Assembly: GCA_031458695.1 (NCBI GenBank)
Contig: JAVKJW010000001.1
Location: forward strand, 64,001 to 128,000
Source of the DNA: Candidatus Thermofontivivens primus
GTDB lineage: Bacteria; Sysuimicrobiota; Sysuimicrobiia; Sysuimicrobiales; Thermofontiviventaceae
Direction of reading: 5' to 3'
DNA length: 64,000 nt
Shown piece by piece: positions 27,001 to 33,000 of the stretch. Made by a program: the position numbers. Within the stretch, counting starts at the first letter, position 1; each line of letters starts with the position of its first letter.

Positions 27001-30000
27001 CACAGCCGCCGCCCGCTCCCCCGGATGATGAACCCTTGGACGGTGGCACCCCCTGCTTTGATGGTGAGGACGTCTCCCTGGCCGCCCCCGTCCACCACCG
27101 GCCTCCCCTCACCCACCAGCCGCACCGCCTTGGAAATCACCAACCGCTCACGATAGACTCCCGGCTGGACGAGGATGGTATCTCCCTCGTGCGCGCGGAC
27201 GAGAGCCTGGCCAATCGTTGCGAATCCCTCCCTTCCCACAATCCAGGTATGTCCCCGCCCTTCCTCCTGCAGAAACGCCTTCCCACCTTCCTCCCTTATG
27301 GGAGAGGATACACGGGAGAGAGGGGGTGTAGGTGCGCCCTGGATCGTAGCCCACGGACTCGCCGCGGCAGTCCAAGCAAGGAGGAGCGATGTTAGGAACG
27401 CGATCTTCCGCGCCATGGGCTTGACCTCCAGAAGGCCAGCACGACCAGGACGAAGGCGATCACGTGGAGCAACGTCCCCACATGGAATGTCGCGGAAGTG
27501 ATGAAGTTGGCCAAGCGCTGGCTCCCTAGGATCGGAGGTGTGAACGGAGGCACCCGGATGGGCGCGTCGGGATCGAGCGTGTGACCGTACAGGTATAAAC
27601 GGTACCACAGATCCAGGATCCCAAGAAGGGCTACGGGCGCGAGGACGATGAGGAGAAAGGGAATCCAGCGCCTGCCCGTCCACGCCGCCACTGTGGCAAG
27701 GAGGGCCACACCCAGGAAGGCTACTGGGATGAGTCGAAGCTCTGGGAAGTCCTCGGGCCGGATCTCCCGCATCCCCACGTAGTGGTTTAAGGTGTTAATA
27801 ATGTCCAGCTTCCCCCTCAGCCCCCAGGCATAGACGGCGAGGGTGAGTCCCTCTGGGTACTGAGGAGCGATGAGCCTCACCTGCCACAGGGGGAAGGCGA
27901 ACGAGAGAAGGACCAGAGCGGCGGAAAAGAGCAAGAGGCGGCGCTCCCACCTCCCGAGCTCTCCGCGCCCAATCCATCCCATCATCCTAGCTCCACCTCG
28001 CTTTTGGAGAGTGTGGTGTCGCGAACACAGGCAGAGGAGGGTGCCCCTTGGGCATCCCTCCCCCTGCCGCTTTGGCCTTTCGTTTTCGTGTTACTTCTTT
28101 GGTTTCACCAAAAGGTATCCCTGCATCTCCTGGTGCAGCGCGGAACAGAAGTTGGTGCAGTAGAACGGGTAGACACCTGGTTTTTCCGCTACAATGGAGA
28201 TTGTCTTTGTTTCCCCGGGCTGGATCTCCATGTTCACGTTGTACAGGGAGATCCCAAACCCATGGGTTAAGTCCTCATCCAGGTCGTTATTGGTGATGTG
28301 GAAGAAGACCCGGTCCCCCTGGTTCACTTCCACGTTGTCGGGAACGTAGCGGCTGCGGATGGCGTACATGTAAACGTGGACCTCGTTCCCCTTGCGCTCG
28401 ATGCGAGCATCCTTGGGGCTCCACACCGAATTGGGGCGCTTGGTTTCTTTGGGGTGGATCTCGATGGCCTTGATCTTATCCGCCTTGACGATCTGGGCAT
28501 AGTGGGGCTCGGGGTCGACAGGGGCATCGGCGATGACGCGCATCTTCCCACCAGCGATGTCGATGAGTTGCAGACTCTCAGGATGCGACGGTCCCACACT
28601 CAAGAACCGGTCCTTAGCCATCTTGTTGAGCGAGACCAGGTACTTGCCATCTGGAGAAGCGGAGTCTCCTTCCGCCGCGGCCAAGTGGCCAACGTTGTAG
28701 TTGATCTGCACCTTGTCCACGACCTTCCAGGTACCCAGCTGCCACTTAGCGATGGCGCTGTCCAAGAAGAGGCTCGTGTAGGCGAACCCTTTGTCGTCGA
28801 ACTGGGTGTGGAGTGGACCAAGGCCCACAGGCACCTCGGCCACGCGCACAGATTCGTAGTTGAGCACAGGAAGCCCGCGCACCGTGCCCGCGAAGTCTTT
28901 CTTCTGGATCGCCTCCTGGATCTTGGCGAATTCGTAGACGGTTACCGTGGGCTGGAGCTTGCCACTGGCCACAATGAACCGCCCATCAGGAGAGACGTCC
29001 ACACCGTGTGGGCTCTTCGCCACTGGGATCAGGTACACGAGCCCGGGGACCTTCGTGGGATCCACGACTTTCACTCCGGCGATGGCGGTAAACTTGCCCG
29101 CCTTGACGGCCTTCTCGACTTCTCTCCAGTTCAAGACAATGATGTAGTCGCGGTCGTTCTTGGAGGCGTTCTTCTCGAGCACTGTGGTGGCTTCCTCGGT
29201 GTTGTAGGTGGTGAGGAAAGCCCACCCCTCGCTCACCTTCTTCCCTGCGTCGGAGAGGTCATACTGCCATGGTGGGAGGAGGAGCTCCCACCCTACGCTC
29301 ATCTCCCCGGTCTTCGGATCCACAGCGATGGCTGCAAGCACGCCGAAATATTTCTTCCCGTACTCAGAGAGGGGGGCATAGGTTCCAGTAGGGATGGGGG
29401 CGGAAAAGCGGCTCGGCATCATAAAGTACTCTGTATTCGGGGTGACGAAGGCGGCGCAGTGGGGGCCCATGATGTTCGGCACAGGTCCGAGGATTTGACC
29501 TACGGTGAAGGTCTTCAGGTCAATGCGGGCAACACGGTTGTTGGCATTATCATTGACAAAAAGCCACCGCCCGTCATACTCACCCCTGGTCTCCGAGAGA
29601 GCAGGGTGGTGGACATCACCCCACGTGTACCCTCCAAGCATCCTCTTGGAGTGTTCGTCGTACCCCCACCCTGTGGCGGGATCGGGAGTAAAGACGGGGA
29701 TGGTGCGGATCCGTCGCATGGAGGGAATTCCAAAAACGTAGACCTGTCCGGAATGCCCTCCAGAGGCGAACATGTAATACTCATCGAGCTTACCTGGAGG
29801 GACAAACGCCTTTCCAGGTTCCTGGGCTCCACTCTCCCTCCCTCCCAGCTGAGGAAGGACAATGGCCAAGGCGATGACGACAAGCGTCACCGCTCCGAGG
29901 ATCCCGGCGGACTTCACCCTTCTCCTCATGGCACTGCCCCCTTTCTGTGCGGGCGGTTGATCCCACCCCATTTCGTTGTTATGGCTCGACAATGAGCTGG

Positions 30001-33000
30001 CCGACCATGTTCTGGTGGCTTGGACTGCACTTGATGTTGCACTGGAAGGGAAACGTTCCTTCTTCGCTTGCCACGAACTCCACGACCACGGGTTGCCCGG
30101 GGAAGATCAAATCGGTGTCGATGTCGTAATCCAGGAGTTGGAAACTGTGGGTCACGTCGTAGCTCATGAGCTTCAGACGCACCCTCTCCCCTTTGCGCAC
30201 CACGATCCTCGCTGGCTGGAAGCCGCCATGCTCAAAGGTATGGATGATGACGGTGATCTCCCGGACCCCTTCTGGGTGAGGCTTCTCCTTGAACTGGTAG
30301 GCGAAGATCCCCACAGGCAGGAGCACCACGATGGCGAAGACCACAATTGCCGCCACCACATCCGCTCTCCGCATCCCTTTTCCTCCTTAACCAACGACGA
30401 CAGGCGAGAAGGTGACTGGGTGATTCTACCCCAGGTACAGCGCCAGGAACACCAAGGTCCCTCCGATCAGATATGCTGTGAGAGGTACAGACGCTTTCCG
30501 CGCCTGCGCTTCCTCAAAGGTCTTGTGCAAAATCCCCGTACCGACAAAAACCGACCAGGCTAGCCCCACAAGCAACAAGGGGACCTGCAGGTAGGGGACG
30601 ATGCCAGGAGCATAAGGGGTCCAGGGATAGCTCTTCGTCCCGAAGAGGTCCCATCCCCAGCCAAAGGGATCTGACAGCACCGAGACGGCGTAGGAGATGT
30701 TGGGGAGGACGAACGCCAAGCTGAAGGCGATCCACCCGAACAGCCCCAGGGGGACGAGCGCATAACTCGTGTTCACGAAGACTTCAGAGAGGGGCACAGA
30801 GCGGGTTCCAGCAATTTTCCGCACCAGGGCGCTCATCCCCAGGTGAAGGCCTGGGGCAAGGACGAGGATGGAGCCAAGGAACATCCCGGCGTATCCAAGG
30901 AAGCCCCAACCTCCAAGGTTCGCCCAGCTCTTGAGAGTTCCCCACGGGCCGATCATGATGATGGAATACAGGATGGCGCTCCCCAGCATGATGAAGGCCT
31001 TGAACGCTTCGTCAAGTTTCCACCCCTTCTCCACCAGGAGATCCGTCCCGAATGGTCGCAGGTTGATGGTGATGTTCCCATAAGGGCAGGCCTTCACGCA
31101 CTCGGTGCAGAGGAGGCAGTAGGTGTTCCGTTCCATCCCCCCGCCCGGGAACTCGAAGTTGGGACAGCCATACCCGCCGATCCCTCCGACCTTGAGGCTC
31201 TCGGGGGTGCTGCCACGGTAACAGGATTTGAACCGGCACTGGCGGCAGACTTCTGCGTCGATCCGCCGGAGCTCTACGGGAGCAGCCATGGAGTAAAGCC
31301 CTAGGAACCCGCCCACGGGGCAAAGATAGCGGCAGAAGGCCCTGCGCTCGAACACCAGGTGCATGACCACCGCCACGGCCATGAGCCCTAGGAGAAGGAA
31401 CCCTGTCACCACGGGCCGCGTGGTCACAATCGGGCTGAACAGCGCGATGGTGAGGAAGCCGAAGTTGGCAAGCCACAGGTTCCTGAGCTGGCGGGGCCAT
31501 CTCTTGCCAAGGCCTAACCCTTGGCTGACGAAGCTCACGAAACTCTTGCGCTGTAGCCACTCCCCGAAGGCTGGGATGGGGCACATGGCGCACCATACCC
31601 TCGCCCCGAAGGGGACAAGAACGACGATCAAGAGGGCCCACCAGACGATCCAGACGAAGATGATGGAAAAGTTCTTGGCCCCCACGGGGATACCGAAGAT
31701 CCCAGAGAGGATGACGATGGTGAAGGCCAGGAGGTTGGGGACGATGAGGGTAAACTGGAACCACCTTTGGAAGACAAGCCAACGCAGGAAGGGTGCGAGC
31801 TGGAGGAGGTCCCTCTTCCAGCCTATCTTGACAGGCTTTGTTTCCGCGACCCGGGTAACCTTGGCCCCTACCGCCTCGTCGTCCACGGTTTAGGCCTCCT
31901 TCCTCCACCAGGCATAGCCAAGAGCAACCACCCCCACCACCATGGCCAAAAACGCCGAACCCGCCAAGGGGATGTTCGGGCGGACGATGATCTCCCCCAC
32001 CATGAAGGGATGGAGGGGACCGCAGATAGCCGAGCAACGGTACCGGATCTTCCCAGGGCGATTGGCCACGAAGGTGATCTCCGCCTCCTCCTGTGGGGGG
32101 ACCTTTACGTCAATGCCGTAGCCATCGATGTAGACGCCGTGGGTGATATCTTCCGAGCGTACCCGCAGGATCGCAGTATCGCCCAGGTTCACTGTGATCC
32201 TCGGAGGGTCAAAGGCGAACTGCCGAGCAGTAATTTCAAACTCTCGCTCGGTGGGGGCAGGACGGTGCACCCAGGCGAATCCTGCCGCGGCAGCGCCCAA
32301 GACGATGATGGCAATTCCAATAAAGAAAAACCTGTTCCTCTGCATCCTAGCGCCACTATAGATCCAAAAGACGAATTAAGTCTATCGGGGAATTGGAGGG
32401 TTTTTGCATGTGCTTTGTAGGGGGAAAGCCTACTCCAGATCGCGCTCTGGAGGGGTGTTGCAACATTTTGTTGCAGACGACAGCCCACCAAGGTTCTCCG
32501 CCCTTGGGAAAGGAGCATGGAACTCGCGGTCCCTTACGTGGGCTTTTGGATCCCCAGCTTTTTCATCTTCCGCCAGAGGGTTGTCCTGTTGACCCCGAGG
32601 AGCTTGGCACAGCGACCGATGCGCCAGTGGGTAGCTTCCAGCATCGCCAGGATGCGCTCCCGCTCGCTGGTAGGAGACCTCGGGTTAGGTTCTCCCTGGC
32701 GTTGCTGAGGACGGGCGTACATGTGGGGAGGAAGGTGGGTGGGGAGGATCTCCCCTCCCCTGCAGAGGGCGAAGGCATAGCTCAGGATACCTTCCAGCTC
32801 CCTTACGTTACCGGGAAAGTCGTAGCTCAAGAGGAGGGAGAGGGCGTCCTGGGAGATCCCCGTGACCGACGGGTTCACCTCTGCCCGCAGGCGGTTCATC
32901 AAGCGCTCCGCCAGGAGAGGGATGTCCTCTTTTCGCTCCCGCAAAGGGGGGACGGCCAAGGTGATCCGTAGGAGGCGATCGGCGAGAGTCCTGTCAAACC

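Follow-up and report, generated by a model that had tools for sequence, protein, structure and literature searches.

A CuA-polyferredoxin-CuA gene trio upstream of clade II nosZ in Candidatus Thermofontivivens primus, and its possible role as a redox partner of nitrous-oxide reductase

Analysis of a 64,000-nucleotide stretch of the genome (the window) revealed a nos cluster on the minus strand in the order CuA151, FeS486, CuA131, Sec-type nosZ, a nosB-like gene and nosD-F-L-L-Y (Table 1). Every gene lies where the genome-wide survey's note had placed it, and in the order given there. CuA151 and FeS486 are 3 nt apart, FeS486 and CuA131 51 nt, and CuA131 overlaps the listed nosZ ORF by 14 nt, the true start of nosZ probably lying some codons inside that ORF.

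Table 1. Features of the nos cluster and the region upstream of it, in window positions
Feature	Position	Strand	Description
NarL/LuxR-type response regulator	33876-34544	-	Pfam Response_reg 5.3e-30, GerE 1.8e-21
PAS-domain sigma-54 enhancer-binding protein	32534-33871	-	Pfam Sigma54_activat 2.1e-36, PAS_9 8.1e-16, HTH_8 1.1e-13
Perfect palindrome TGCAAC-N5-GTTGCA	32459-32475	.	In the 188-nt gap before CuA151
CuA151	31890-32345	-	151 aa; predicted N-terminal anchor helix, outward-facing CuA cupredoxin and C-terminal helix back into the cell
FeS486	30426-31886	-	Membrane polyferredoxin, 486 aa, about nine helices
CuA131	29979-30374	-	131 aa; predicted N-terminal anchor helix and outward-facing CuA cupredoxin, without cytochrome c domain
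NosZ, clade II (Sec-type) nitrous-oxide reductase	28091-29992	-	TIGR04246
NosB-like membrane protein	27392-27985	-	Four helices; conserved place after nosZ
nosD, nosF, nosL, nosL, nosY	23252-27410	-	Maturation and copper-delivery genes (Pfam, NCBIfam)

The nosZ product scored 914.7 bits on the model for Sec-dependent enzymes (cut-off 625, NCBIfam), matched nos_propeller and Cupredoxin_1 (Pfam), carries the CuA motif CTNFCSALHQEM at residue 612 and has no haem c site. NosD was identified by TIGR04247 (398.8 bits, NCBIfam), and ABC_tran, two NosL and ABC2_membrane_2 were recognised among the other maturation genes (Pfam/NCBIfam). The NosB-like protein had no Pfam or NCBIfam match; in all 15 nos loci examined in the order, nosZ is followed by a gene for such a protein, 37-46% identical, and one also follows nosZ in three related loci, L004, L126 and L129. 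Searches of the 12 cluster proteins with Pfam, NCBIfam and the CxxCH motif yielded no electron-transfer protein besides the trio and NosZ. None of the 12 has a CxxCH haem c site, and NosG, NosH and NosR were not found among them (Pfam, NCBIfam), in agreement with the survey's statement that the cluster lacks cytochrome c, nosG and a full nosR. By Pfam, nosL is the only copper-export or chaperone gene type in the cluster, and a PCYCGC gene is absent from the genome.

Both small proteins of the trio matched Cupredoxin_1 (E 3.6e-9 for CuA151, 8.8e-10 for CuA131) and COX2 (1.1e-6 and 2.9e-6; Pfam), and the CuA motifs CSAICGPLHPFM and CNIKCSPSHQNM are present in the two. With H69 of CuA151 and H76 of CuA131 as the upstream His ligands, H69, C104, C108, H112 and M115 of the former and H76, C112, C116 and H120 of the latter are invariant in 20-row family alignments. 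Hydrophobic segments occupy the N and C termini of CuA151 and only the N terminus of CuA131. The full CuA motifs and membrane anchors described by the survey thus hold, all CuA ligands being kept in both proteins, and judged from these ligands their copper would be bound as CuA. Among solved structures, both lie closest to the Thermus ba3 CuA domain (E 1e-9 to 1e-15) and to that of NosZ.

FeS486 contains two Fer4_5 stretches (7.1e-10, Pfam). Its first half is NapH-like, with CxxCP and CxxxCP motifs and Cys motifs for two [4Fe-4S] clusters, and its second half is an extra five-helix domain with the conserved outer loop SDPFGWGW; 11 Cys are invariant in the family. The best curated match was TIGR02163 (NapH/MauN), to residues 88-271 with E 7.9e-11, and the NosR model aligned over only 33 residues (E 0.0049, NCBIfam). 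The AF2 model reached pLDDT 76 and pTM 0.80, and no solved relative was found by sequence or by fold. No His is invariant in the membrane part, and no cofactor is evident there to carry electrons across the membrane. FeS486 resembles NapH and NosH in its four helices, two Cys-Pro motifs and two [4Fe-4S] motifs. It differs from them in reaching 42 bits against the TIGR02163 cut-off of 213, in having CuA partners instead of the NapG/NosG or cytochrome c that accompany NapH and NosH (as in Wolinella NosGH-C1-C2), and in having relatives fused to an NAD(P)H flavoprotein, suggesting a cytoplasmic rather than a quinol donor.

The trio belongs to a large and conserved family (719 representatives at E<=1e-30), in which the CuA-polyferredoxin-CuA order recurs far above chance, with the upstream CuA gene in 79 of 80 related genome loci and the downstream one in at least 56 of the 80. 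In 21 of these loci a CuA151-type gene and the polyferredoxin gene form a single reading frame, and in 58 more the two are adjacent; 48 of 80 CuA131 relatives bear a C-terminal cytochrome c domain (CxxCH). Complex prediction with CuA131 as the partner gave a score of 0.74, compared with 0.00 for the best of three controls; 116 of 157 solved complexes attain this level, as against 2 of 215 mismatched pairs, counts that apply only roughly because other alignments were used here. At least 78% of contacts were common to the runs, and pLDDT of the partner CuA131 was at least 81. The predicted interface places CuA131 residues 70-75, 91-95 and 114-120 against CuA151 residues 65-68, 83-86 and 106-109, and these CuA131 residues also touch the conserved FeS486 outer loop 406-419; in the predicted complex the two CuA loops stand face to face on the polyferredoxin. 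Together, the fusions, conserved order and complex prediction support the view that CuA151, FeS486 and CuA131 form a functional unit, and the invariant CuA ligand sets and the cytochrome c fusions support an electron-transfer character of its proteins.

Relatives of FeS486 also point to the source of the electrons. In six of eight long family representatives tested, Fer4_20 and Pyr_redox_2 are inserted just before the Fe-S motifs (one of these, P0125, also has an N-terminal cupredoxin), and a separate NAD(P)H-flavoprotein gene follows the polyferredoxin in 5 of the 80 loci. Such inserted or adjacent modules indicate a cytoplasmic electron donor and export from the cytoplasm, so the quinol donor proposed by the survey is not indicated. 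The trio genes probably encode one complex that carries electrons out of the cell, an outward direction that we infer from these relatives. The further proposal that stand-alone CuA proteins replace cytochromes c proved too strong, both because most CuA131 relatives bear a cytochrome c domain and because the genome encodes Ccm genes, c-type cytochromes, Rieske proteins and four haem-copper oxidases. The Ccm genes, c-type cytochromes and Rieske proteins are possible other routes to NosZ, and the true COX2 genes of the genome adjoin COX1 elsewhere.

Comparison with known systems revealed partial likenesses. Subunit II of haem-copper oxidases (Thermus ba3 CbaB, caa3) and the NosZ CuA domain have the CuA ligand pattern and cupredoxin domain of the small proteins, and caa3 subunit II has a CuA-cytochrome c fusion like that of CuA131 relatives; the trio differs from the oxidases in its single-helix anchor, its polyferredoxin partner and the lack of an adjacent subunit I gene. 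The small blue-copper donors to NosZ (pseudoazurin, azurin and the haloarchaeal halocyanins) are soluble or lipid-anchored proteins with mononuclear type 1 copper. They too are small cupredoxins that donate electrons to a denitrification enzyme, whereas the window encodes two binuclear CuA-type proteins predicted to dock on a membrane Fe-S protein. Other genomes of the order carry genes for type-1-like cupredoxins immediately ahead of nosZ.

The closest parallel in architecture is the 'Candidatus Methanoperedens' nar operon with its HCO II - NapH-like - HCO II genes, in which, as described by Arshad et al. (2015, PMC4683180), both HCO II-like proteins have one helix and the NapH-like protein has nine, four plus 'five additional' C-terminal ones. 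According to the same description, that trio was proposed to belong to an unusual membrane-bound reductase complex, with every gene of it highly transcribed (PMC4683180). The two systems are alike by description only, in architecture, in the lack of NapG from the operon as depicted there and in lying beside an outward-facing N-oxide reductase; the partner is NarGH in an archaeon in one case and NosZ in a bacterium in the other (PMC4683180). No named Methanoperedens protein was among the best 120 matches listed. The survey's suggestion of a new class of respiratory redox protein is weakened, since the same three-gene architecture was reported in 2015, in an account that presents it without biochemistry (PMC4683180).

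We found that the family as a whole is not tied to nosZ, which adjoins the trio in 1 of 80 genome loci (0 of 39 among genome loci of 15 kb or more) and in 2 of 80 metagenome loci, only 29 of which reach 10 kb. In seven genomes of the order, 91-98% complete, the trio occurs without nosZ, and in five of the seven, checked for clade III NosZ, none was found. Conversely, no trio orthologue occurs in the remaining 27 genomes of the order with nosZ, and the 15 of these whose nos loci were examined have no trio near nosZ; NosZ therefore does not need the trio. In contrast, within the subclade of the window proteins each of the four members whose context is known immediately precedes nosZ-nosB in the same order and on the same strand (CuA-FeS-CuA-nosZ-nosB in the window, L004, L126 and L129), a linkage kept over deep divergence (66-89% identity). 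These four fall in one clade (support 85/94), apart from a clade of CopI-linked paralogues (99/98); the nos-linked clade has nine rows, five with context not known, and its support is moderate. Thus, of the survey's proposal that the trio is an electron-transfer module for NosZ, the unit, its electron-transfer look and the nosZ linkage of the subclade stand, but the trio is not a nos device in general.

The same genome carries a paralogous trio on contig C54, as the survey had noted, with identities to the window trio of 60% for CuA151, 67% for FeS486 and 46% for CuA131. Two two-component systems accompany the C54 trio, where the survey had named one, and a gene for a CopI-like protein follows it. 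All four small CuA proteins match the NosZ CuA domain at 30-38%.

Upstream of the window trio lie two regulator genes. The PAS/sigma-54 enhancer-binding protein is likely the regulator of the nos-trio operon; in L126 (89%) and L004 (46%) its counterpart immediately precedes the nos-linked trio, and rpoN is present in the genome. The NarL/LuxR-type response regulator, with no kinase gene beside it in the window, is kept upstream in L126 (88%). The palindrome before CuA151 is the sole exact match in the genome (one match in the window versus 0.08 expected by chance), is kept at the same place in L126 and, on its sequence, is a candidate regulator site.

We propose that the nos-linked trio is a redox feeder or activator of NosZ resembling NosR or NosGH, a tentative reading to which we assign a probability of roughly 45%, a little short of even odds. 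NosR has been proposed to keep N2OR active or to pass electrons to it, and in clade II clusters NosGH with cytochromes c has been proposed as the path from menaquinol to NosZ, as outlined in a review. NosR is likewise encoded next to nosZ and, like the trio, joins an outward-facing redox domain to two cytoplasmic [4Fe-4S] motifs, with Cys-Pro motifs bordering the membrane. Its outer domain binds FMN, however, whereas that of the trio is a CuA cupredoxin encoded by a separate gene (fused in relatives), and the trio family, for the most part not nos-linked, adds a C-terminal domain of five helices and a second CuA partner.

The survey had itself raised a copper chaperone or assembly factor as an alternative, and this is a serious rival, if an unlikely one, because the commonest family neighbours are copper-handling or cofactor-biogenesis genes: across the 80 loci, PCYCGC lipoprotein (50), copper P-type ATPase (16), multicopper oxidase (10), HMA protein (7), DsbD_2 (7) and CopI-like protein (4). 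The polyferredoxin, like CcoG, would turn Cu(II) into Cu(I), and the CuA-type proteins on the outer face would accept the copper or pass it on; within the nos operon this Cu(I) would serve the two NosL and NosDFY in loading Sec-exported NosZ. CcoG, a membrane protein that carries two copper sites besides its two [4Fe-4S] clusters, is described as a specific cupric reductase serving cuproenzyme assembly and copper tolerance (PMC7558416), and this precedent favours the copper-supply reading. FeS486 shares with CcoG and YccM the Fer4_5 class of membrane polyferredoxin, similar size and association with copper-handling genes, E. coli YccM giving a weak tblastn match (E 3e-4), and the cluster has two nosL genes and a NosZ that must be metallated outside the cell. 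However, the CcoG and FixG_C models matched no cluster protein at E<=0.01 (Pfam, NCBIfam), FeS486 lacks the FixG_C Ig-like domain, and CcoG has no CuA partners. Moreover, full invariant CuA ligand sets and cytochrome c fusions mark electron-transfer rather than chaperone sites, the 27 other nosZ genomes mature NosZ without a trio, and the neighbouring copper ATPase, thioredoxin-like protein, DsbD_2 and CcmF could also serve to build the CuA and haem c centres of the module itself.

More doubtful still is a generic copper-stress or envelope redox module that adjoins nosZ without serving it, for example by holding outer-face copper proteins or thiols reduced at high copper, any benefit to NosZ being indirect. 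Copper islands and two-component systems are the family-wide context of the trio, the sister paralogue is CopI-linked and the trio occurs in genomes without nosZ, all of which would fit. Such a module is harder to reconcile with the nos linkage of all four subclade members whose context is known, with an upstream PAS/sigma-54 activator in place of the copper-type two-component system seen elsewhere, and with a cluster in which copper handling is confined to nosL, in a genome without PCYCGC.

In FtrABCD iron uptake the cupredoxin FtrB is proposed to act with FtrD, a polyferredoxin. An inward sink, in which copper proteins at the outer face would take electrons from a substrate such as Cu(I) and deliver them to the polyferredoxin, has a possible analogue in that pairing (FtrD is named among the Ftr components in PMC11966278) and could draw on the multicopper oxidases of the family loci, yet it is very improbable given that, by typical potentials, electrons would have to run uphill from CuA to low-potential Fe-S clusters, and given NAD(P)H-flavoprotein insertions that fit outward flow better, 12 cluster genes with no FTR1 or P19 and a plasmid search that gave no Ftr-type relative.

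If the trio feeds or activates NosZ, CuA151, CuA131 and FeS486 would assemble as one membrane complex, with two [4Fe-4S] clusters on the cytoplasmic face taking electrons from a cytoplasmic reductant. In relatives the donor would be NAD(P)H, via a GltD-like flavoprotein, and menaquinol is possible for the window copy. Electrons would cross the membrane part along a path that the sequence does not reveal, reach the CuA centre of CuA151 and move to the adjacent centre of CuA131 and on to an extracytoplasmic copper protein, which we infer to be NosZ here. In this hot-spring, Limnochordia-like lineage one paralogue would have been placed in a nos operon under a PAS/sigma-54 activator, where its most likely role is to feed NosZ or to activate it by reduction. 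In function it would then correspond to clade I NosR, or to NosGH with NosC1/C2 in other clade II clusters; the window cluster encodes none of these. In sum, the trio is an ancient and generic module, widespread but unstudied, whose link to N2O reduction is confined to this small lineage.

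Analysis of the 12 minus-strand genes around nosZ revealed that the trio placed beside it by the genome-wide survey's note is real and non-random and makes biological sense. The trio comprises two small membrane-anchored CuA-type proteins, CuA151 and CuA131, encoded on either side of FeS486, a membrane polyferredoxin; 3 nt separate the end of CuA151 from the start of FeS486, and 51 nt lie between FeS486 and CuA131. The listed nosZ ORF shares 14 nt with CuA131, and the real nosZ start probably lies further inside that ORF. NosZ is Sec-dependent (914.7 bits against a cut-off of 625 for its model), and the cluster has a clade II make-up, with Sec-type NosZ, a nosB-like gene, NosD, NosF, two NosL and NosY. 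The clade II electron-transport genes nosG, nosH, nosC1 and nosC2 were not found in the cluster: a motif scan detected CxxCH in none of the 12 proteins, Pfam and NCBIfam searches detected no NapG/NosG-type ferredoxin among the 12 genes, and no match reached NapG/NapH grade. The nosB-like protein matches neither Pfam nor NCBIfam models, and a homologue follows nosZ in all 15 nos loci examined within the order; we regard it as a conserved clade II accessory protein without a curated family.

Features of the nos gene cluster and its upstream region (window coordinates)
Feature	Position	Strand	Family models
NarL/LuxR-type response regulator	33876-34544	minus	Pfam/NCBIfam
PAS-domain sigma-54 activator	32534-33871	minus	Pfam/NCBIfam
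Palindrome TGCAAC-N5-GTTGCA	32459-32475		
CuA151	31890-32345	minus	Cupredoxin_1, COX2
FeS486, 486-aa polyferredoxin	30426-31886	minus	
CuA131	29979-30374	minus	Cupredoxin_1, COX2
nosZ	28091-29992	minus	TIGR04246
nosB-like 197-aa membrane protein	27392-27985	minus	
nosD, nosF, nosL, nosL, nosY	23252-27410	minus	

By domain and by a full ligand set, a His followed by C-x3-C-x3-H-x2-M, both CuA151 and CuA131 are predicted to be CuA-type cupredoxins. Their Cupredoxin_1 matches scored 37 and 39 bits, respectively (Pfam cut-off 27), and their COX2 matches 29 and 27.7 bits (Pfam cut-off 22). Residues H69, C104, C108, H112 and M115 of CuA151 and H76, C112, C116 and H120 of CuA131 were invariant, each set in its own 20-row alignment, and the ligand Met is displaced by one position in Rokubacteria-type relatives. 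Among solved structures, the sequences closest to theirs are those of two CuA domains, that of Thermus ba3 oxidase (E 1e-9 to 1e-15) and that of NosZ.

The family alignment of FeS486 showed 11 invariant Cys, including C99-x2-C102-P, C185-x3-C189-P and motifs for two [4Fe-4S] clusters (Cys motifs at 214-267), and 11 invariant Trp. Two Cys pairs sit at the edge of the membrane. No His is invariant, and haem ligands are not conserved. An AF2 model (pLDDT 76, pTM 0.80) predicted about nine membrane helices, of which helices 1-4, carrying the Cys motifs, appear NapH-like and would be followed by five additional helices that include a strongly conserved SDPFGWGW loop (residues 405-412). Fusions of CuA151 to FeS486 in relatives fix the topology, with the cupredoxin outside and the N terminus and Fe-S region of FeS486 inside. 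No solved relative of FeS486 was detected by sequence (best E 0.27) or by Foldseek (best E 0.1), a wide VIA-align search returned only generic helix bundles (Z<8), and matches in the ESM Atlas were confined to unnamed Fer4_5 clusters.

Complex prediction for CuA151 and FeS486 with CuA131 as the partner, using an alignment built by us for each chain, gave a score of 0.74 (0.75, 0.74 and 0.74 in individual runs), compared to 0.00 for the best of three controls. Of 157 solved complexes, 116 attained this mark, as did 2 of 215 mismatched pairs; these counts are only a rough guide for custom alignments. At least 78% of contacts were common to the runs, and the pLDDT of CuA131 was at least 81. The model packs the CuA131 anchor helix against helix 1 of FeS486 and brings the ligand loops of CuA131 (70-75, 91-95 and 114-120) into contact with those of CuA151 (65-68, 83-86 and 106-109) as well as with residues 406-411 and 418-419 of the conserved FeS486 outer loop. 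Since no complex of this kind has been solved, the passing score is unlikely to reflect a memorised structure. The prediction supports, short of proof, binding of CuA131 to CuA151/FeS486.

Comparison of FeS486 with known systems revealed both shared and distinct features. The NapH/NosH layout of four helices, two Cys-Pro motifs and two [4Fe-4S] motifs is present, but the first Cys spacing is two residues rather than three, five further helices are added, the scores fall far short (42 bits vs 213 for TIGR02163 and 30.3 vs 234 for PRK09477), and the NapG/NosG ferredoxin partner is missing from the cluster. The trio adjoins nosZ in the window and in three related loci (L004, from a genome, and L126 and L129, from metagenomes). 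Neither FeS486 nor its neighbours matched FMN_bind, and the NosR model matched only residues 169-201 (E 0.0049). YccM gave a weak tblastn match with FeS486 (E 3e-4, 27% of the query).

The arrangement of the trio resembles one described in an archaeon. Excerpts of PMC4683180 (Arshad et al. 2015) describe a highly transcribed nar operon of Methanoperedens containing 'HCO II' (1 helix), 'NapH' (9 helices) and 'HCO II' (1 helix), in which 'NapH' has five extra C-terminal helices and NapG is absent, and propose an unusual membrane-bound nitrate-reducing complex. Compared by the description excerpted from that paper, the window trio fits the Methanoperedens one (MPEBLZ_02039-02041) in gene order and helix counts, and each trio lies beside an outward-facing N-oxide reductase. 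No named Methanoperedens protein occurred among the 120 best matches to a Thorarchaeota homologue used as query. Searches of the accessible literature found no study of the trio proteins, and the excerpts of PMC11828985, PMC11033732, bioRxiv 2025.06.28.662143, PMC8756737 and PMC3475470 concern other subjects. In sum, the trio is a CuA-partnered variant of the membrane polyferredoxin modules (NapH, NosH, NosR and CcoG) that has been noticed in print once, with no biochemistry. The main rival explanation is a CcoG-like cupric reductase that would provide Cu(I) for NosZ maturation, which we consider less likely; neither the CcoG/FixG model nor the C-terminal FixG_C Ig-like domain was listed for FeS486 at E≤0.01.

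The family to which FeS486 belongs is broad. Among 8000 candidates scored, 2932 matched at E≤1e-3, and in a library clustered at 50% identity, representatives numbered 4174 at E≤1e-3, 1866 at E≤1e-10 and 719 at E≤1e-30. The closest named relative is from a Limnochordaceae MAG (66%), and most others are from Chloroflexota, Rokubacteria/Methylomirabilia and a few archaea. Many relatives are 600-660 aa long, with a CuA151-type unit (anchor helix, cupredoxin and second helix) joined N-terminally. Of 305 related loci from species-representative genomes, 80 were analysed, with CuA-type genes counted by reading frame and neighbours by tblastn. An upstream CuA151-type unit was present in 79 of the 80 (21 in-frame fusions and 58 separate units), and the remaining locus begins at a contig edge. 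A downstream CuA131-type gene with the exact motif was found in 56 of these loci and the variant C-x3-C-x3-H-x3-M in a further 13 (one inspected, L014); seven lacked such a gene and four reach the contig end. The claim that CuA proteins replace cytochromes c wholesale was not borne out, because 48 of the 56 CuA131-type proteins end in a cytochrome c domain (Pfam Cytochrom_C), an arrangement shared with caa3 oxidase subunit II, and the window's genome itself has cytochrome c matches. An organism without any cytochrome c is ruled out by three PF01578 matches, three to four cytochrome c matches and four COX1 genes.

Long members of the family point to the electron donor. Of the best 150 representatives, 19 have at least 750 aa, and six of the eight that were domain-scanned (P0125, P0133, P0137, P0144, P0149 and P0249) contain Fer4_20 and Pyr_redox_2, the combination that GltD and dihydropyrimidine dehydrogenase use as their NAD(P)H-flavoprotein module. 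It is inserted within the cytoplasmic loop that immediately precedes the Fe-S motifs (profile position 210-215), and P0125 retains the N-terminal cupredoxin as well. A separate Fer4_20/Pyr_redox_2 gene follows the polyferredoxin in 5 of the 80 genome loci, and the window copy is without a flavoprotein partner. The fusions indicate a cytoplasmic donor side and argue for outward electron flow. They weaken the quinol step proposed by the genome-wide survey's note, and still allow quinol for the window copy. In P0137, an AhpC/TSA thioredoxin-like domain takes the N-terminal place of the cupredoxin, which suggests that the outer acceptor domain is interchangeable.

The order CuA-FeS-CuA-nosZ-nosB is common to four nosZ loci, namely those of the window, L126, L129 and L004. 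In a 32-row tree of the window protein and its paralogue from contig C54 of the same genome, five loci of known context, five relatives from the order and 20 database proteins chosen among top matches, all four nos-linked proteins fell in a clade of nine rows (support 85/94; context known for four of the nine). Its sister clade (support 99/98) comprised the paralogues linked to CopI (C54, L127, L128, P0003, P0004 and P0006). The nos-linked four are only 66-89% identical to each other, indicating that the linkage to nosZ is long-lasting.

Outside this subclade, the 15 other nos loci examined within the order begin with an Rrf2 regulator, followed by nosZ-(nosL)-nosB-nosD-F-Y, and none of the 15 contains a FeS486 relative. 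Small cupredoxin genes, type-1-like or CuA-like, were present within the fetched stretch of at least seven of the 15, some directly upstream, suggesting that cupredoxins near nosZ are a theme of the order. Two of the order's loci also carry a periplasmic-type Nar-like set upstream of Rrf2-nosZ (L125 1724-8799 and L119 55-8817), consisting of a molybdopterin subunit, a Fer4_11 subunit, a NarJ-like chaperone and an EB_dh haem protein. This set is followed by two small cupredoxin genes in L125 and by a radical SAM gene in both loci, such that nitrate and N2O reduction appear clustered together with copper carriers.

Regulatory features are also retained in the nos-linked subclade. The PAS/sigma-54 activator gene is kept directly upstream in L126 (89%) and L004 (46%), and rpoN is present in the window's genome. 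The gap between the activator gene and CuA151 contains a perfect palindrome, TGCAAC-N5-GTTGCA, the sole exact match in the genome and kept at the same position in L126; it is probably a binding site of the sigma-54 activator. A GG-N10-GC element just before the CuA151 start codon, likewise kept in L126, is not claimed as a sigma-54 promoter, since its match to the consensus is poor and it would leave the transcript without a leader.

The wider family, in contrast to the four nos-linked loci, rarely adjoins nosZ. Full-length NosZ was found in the fetched flanks of 1 of 80 genome loci (L004) and in none of the 39 that span 15 kb or more; it was present in 2 of 80 metagenome loci (L126 and L129), drawn from at least 507, and only 29 of these 80 reach 10 kb. 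Within the window's order (94 genomes), trio orthologues scoring above 600 bits occur in the window's genome, in two copies, and in seven others. These seven (91-98% complete) are not among the 28 genomes with nosZ, and clade III NosZ was not found in the five of them that were checked (best score 66 bits vs a cut-off of 700). Around their trio loci, only NarL-type two-component systems and unrelated genes were found. The view of the trio as a nosZ electron-transfer module holds in part: it is a unit of electron-transfer type linked to nosZ in this lineage, but it is not nos-specific.

Copper-type genes are the recurrent neighbours instead. By tblastn with at least half-length coverage, the 80 genome loci contained a PCYCGC/CYCXC lipoprotein (50 loci), a copper P-type ATPase (16), a two-domain multicopper oxidase (10), an HMA/CopZ-like protein (7), DsbD_2 (7) and a CopI-like protein (4). 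In its 50 loci (e.g. L020:9052-9495), the lipoprotein with the PCYCGC/CYCXC motif (Pfam PF13798; NCBIfam 'CYCXC family (seleno)protein') is encoded immediately upstream of the trio; the window's genome lacks it. The multicopper oxidase was rejected as NirK, since CopA/CueO models matched far better than Cu_nitrite_red (E 7.8e-56 vs 5.6e-22). These neighbours may reflect either copper homeostasis or the building of the CuA and haem c centres of the module itself; AhpC/TSA-type redoxin and CcmF genes, which also occur nearby, support the latter view. The homeostasis reading would suit a generic copper-stress module that merely happens to lie beside nosZ, an explanation that the long-lasting nosZ linkage makes improbable. 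An inward-directed, Ftr-like electron sink is very improbable, given the outward flow argued for by the flavoprotein fusions, the absence of FTR1 permease and P19 domains (as in FtrABCD) among the 12 cluster genes, and a plasmid tblastn search that gave no Ftr-type match (best match Deinococcus ficus, with an uninformative neighbourhood).

The paralogous trio on C54, which the survey had also reported, proved genuine, with 60%, 67% and 46% identity to CuA151, FeS486 and CuA131 of the window, and it sits among two two-component systems. It is followed directly by a blue-copper protein whose best curated match is CopI (NF051440, E 2.8e-15, well under the cut-off), one of three CopI-like paralogues in the genome (C54:81428-81889, C1:53332-53793 and C23:12222-12683) that are 56-62% identical to each other. 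Also beside this trio (locus L001, C54:70001-90000 of genome G000, positions 4996-8975), two more Cupredoxin_1 genes, encoding 152 aa each, flank a gene for a 193-aa protein without a family match; next come genes for an NrfC-like 4Fe-4S protein and the membrane protein NrfD. In metagenome locus L128, too, this NrfC/NrfD pair lies after the paralogue. The set in L001 may be a quinol dehydrogenase that uses cupredoxins in place of cytochromes.

We propose, with a probability of roughly 45%, that the trio is a transmembrane redox complex delivering electrons to copper proteins on the outer face, which in this operon would supply NosZ with electrons or activate it reductively, taking the place of NosR or NosGH-C1-C2, neither of which is encoded. 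If the donor is cytoplasmic, no energy would be conserved, and an activating or maintenance role would fit better than the main respiratory path. More tentatively, two head-to-head CuA cupredoxins on a nine-helix polyferredoxin could represent natural CuA centres outside haem-copper oxidases and N2O reductase, forming the copper 'wire' of a machine that exports electrons across the membrane and is driven by cytoplasmic NAD(P)H or ferredoxin. Such an exporter would be widespread in Chloroflexota, Methylomirabilota/Rokubacteria, Limnochordia-like Bacillota and some archaea; one hot-spring lineage would have recruited it in place of NosR, as a dedicated means of feeding or activating a clade II N2O reductase with no cytochrome c.

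The electron supply and upkeep of clade II N2O reductase are an open question, above all where NosR, NosGH or nos-linked cytochromes are lacking, and excerpts of reviews describe the role of NosR as still unsettled; nosR mutants yield CuZ in the form CuZ*. The cluster offers a compact candidate of three genes, two of which encode small soluble-domain copper proteins suited to spectroscopy, from a family that is large (the 719 representatives at E≤1e-30) and uncharacterised. If the CuA sites are real, CuA would no longer be confined to two enzyme families but would also serve in a free-standing module for electron transfer, and bacteria would possess a means of moving cytoplasmic electrons to copper proteins on the outer face, with bearing on both N2O mitigation and copper homeostasis.
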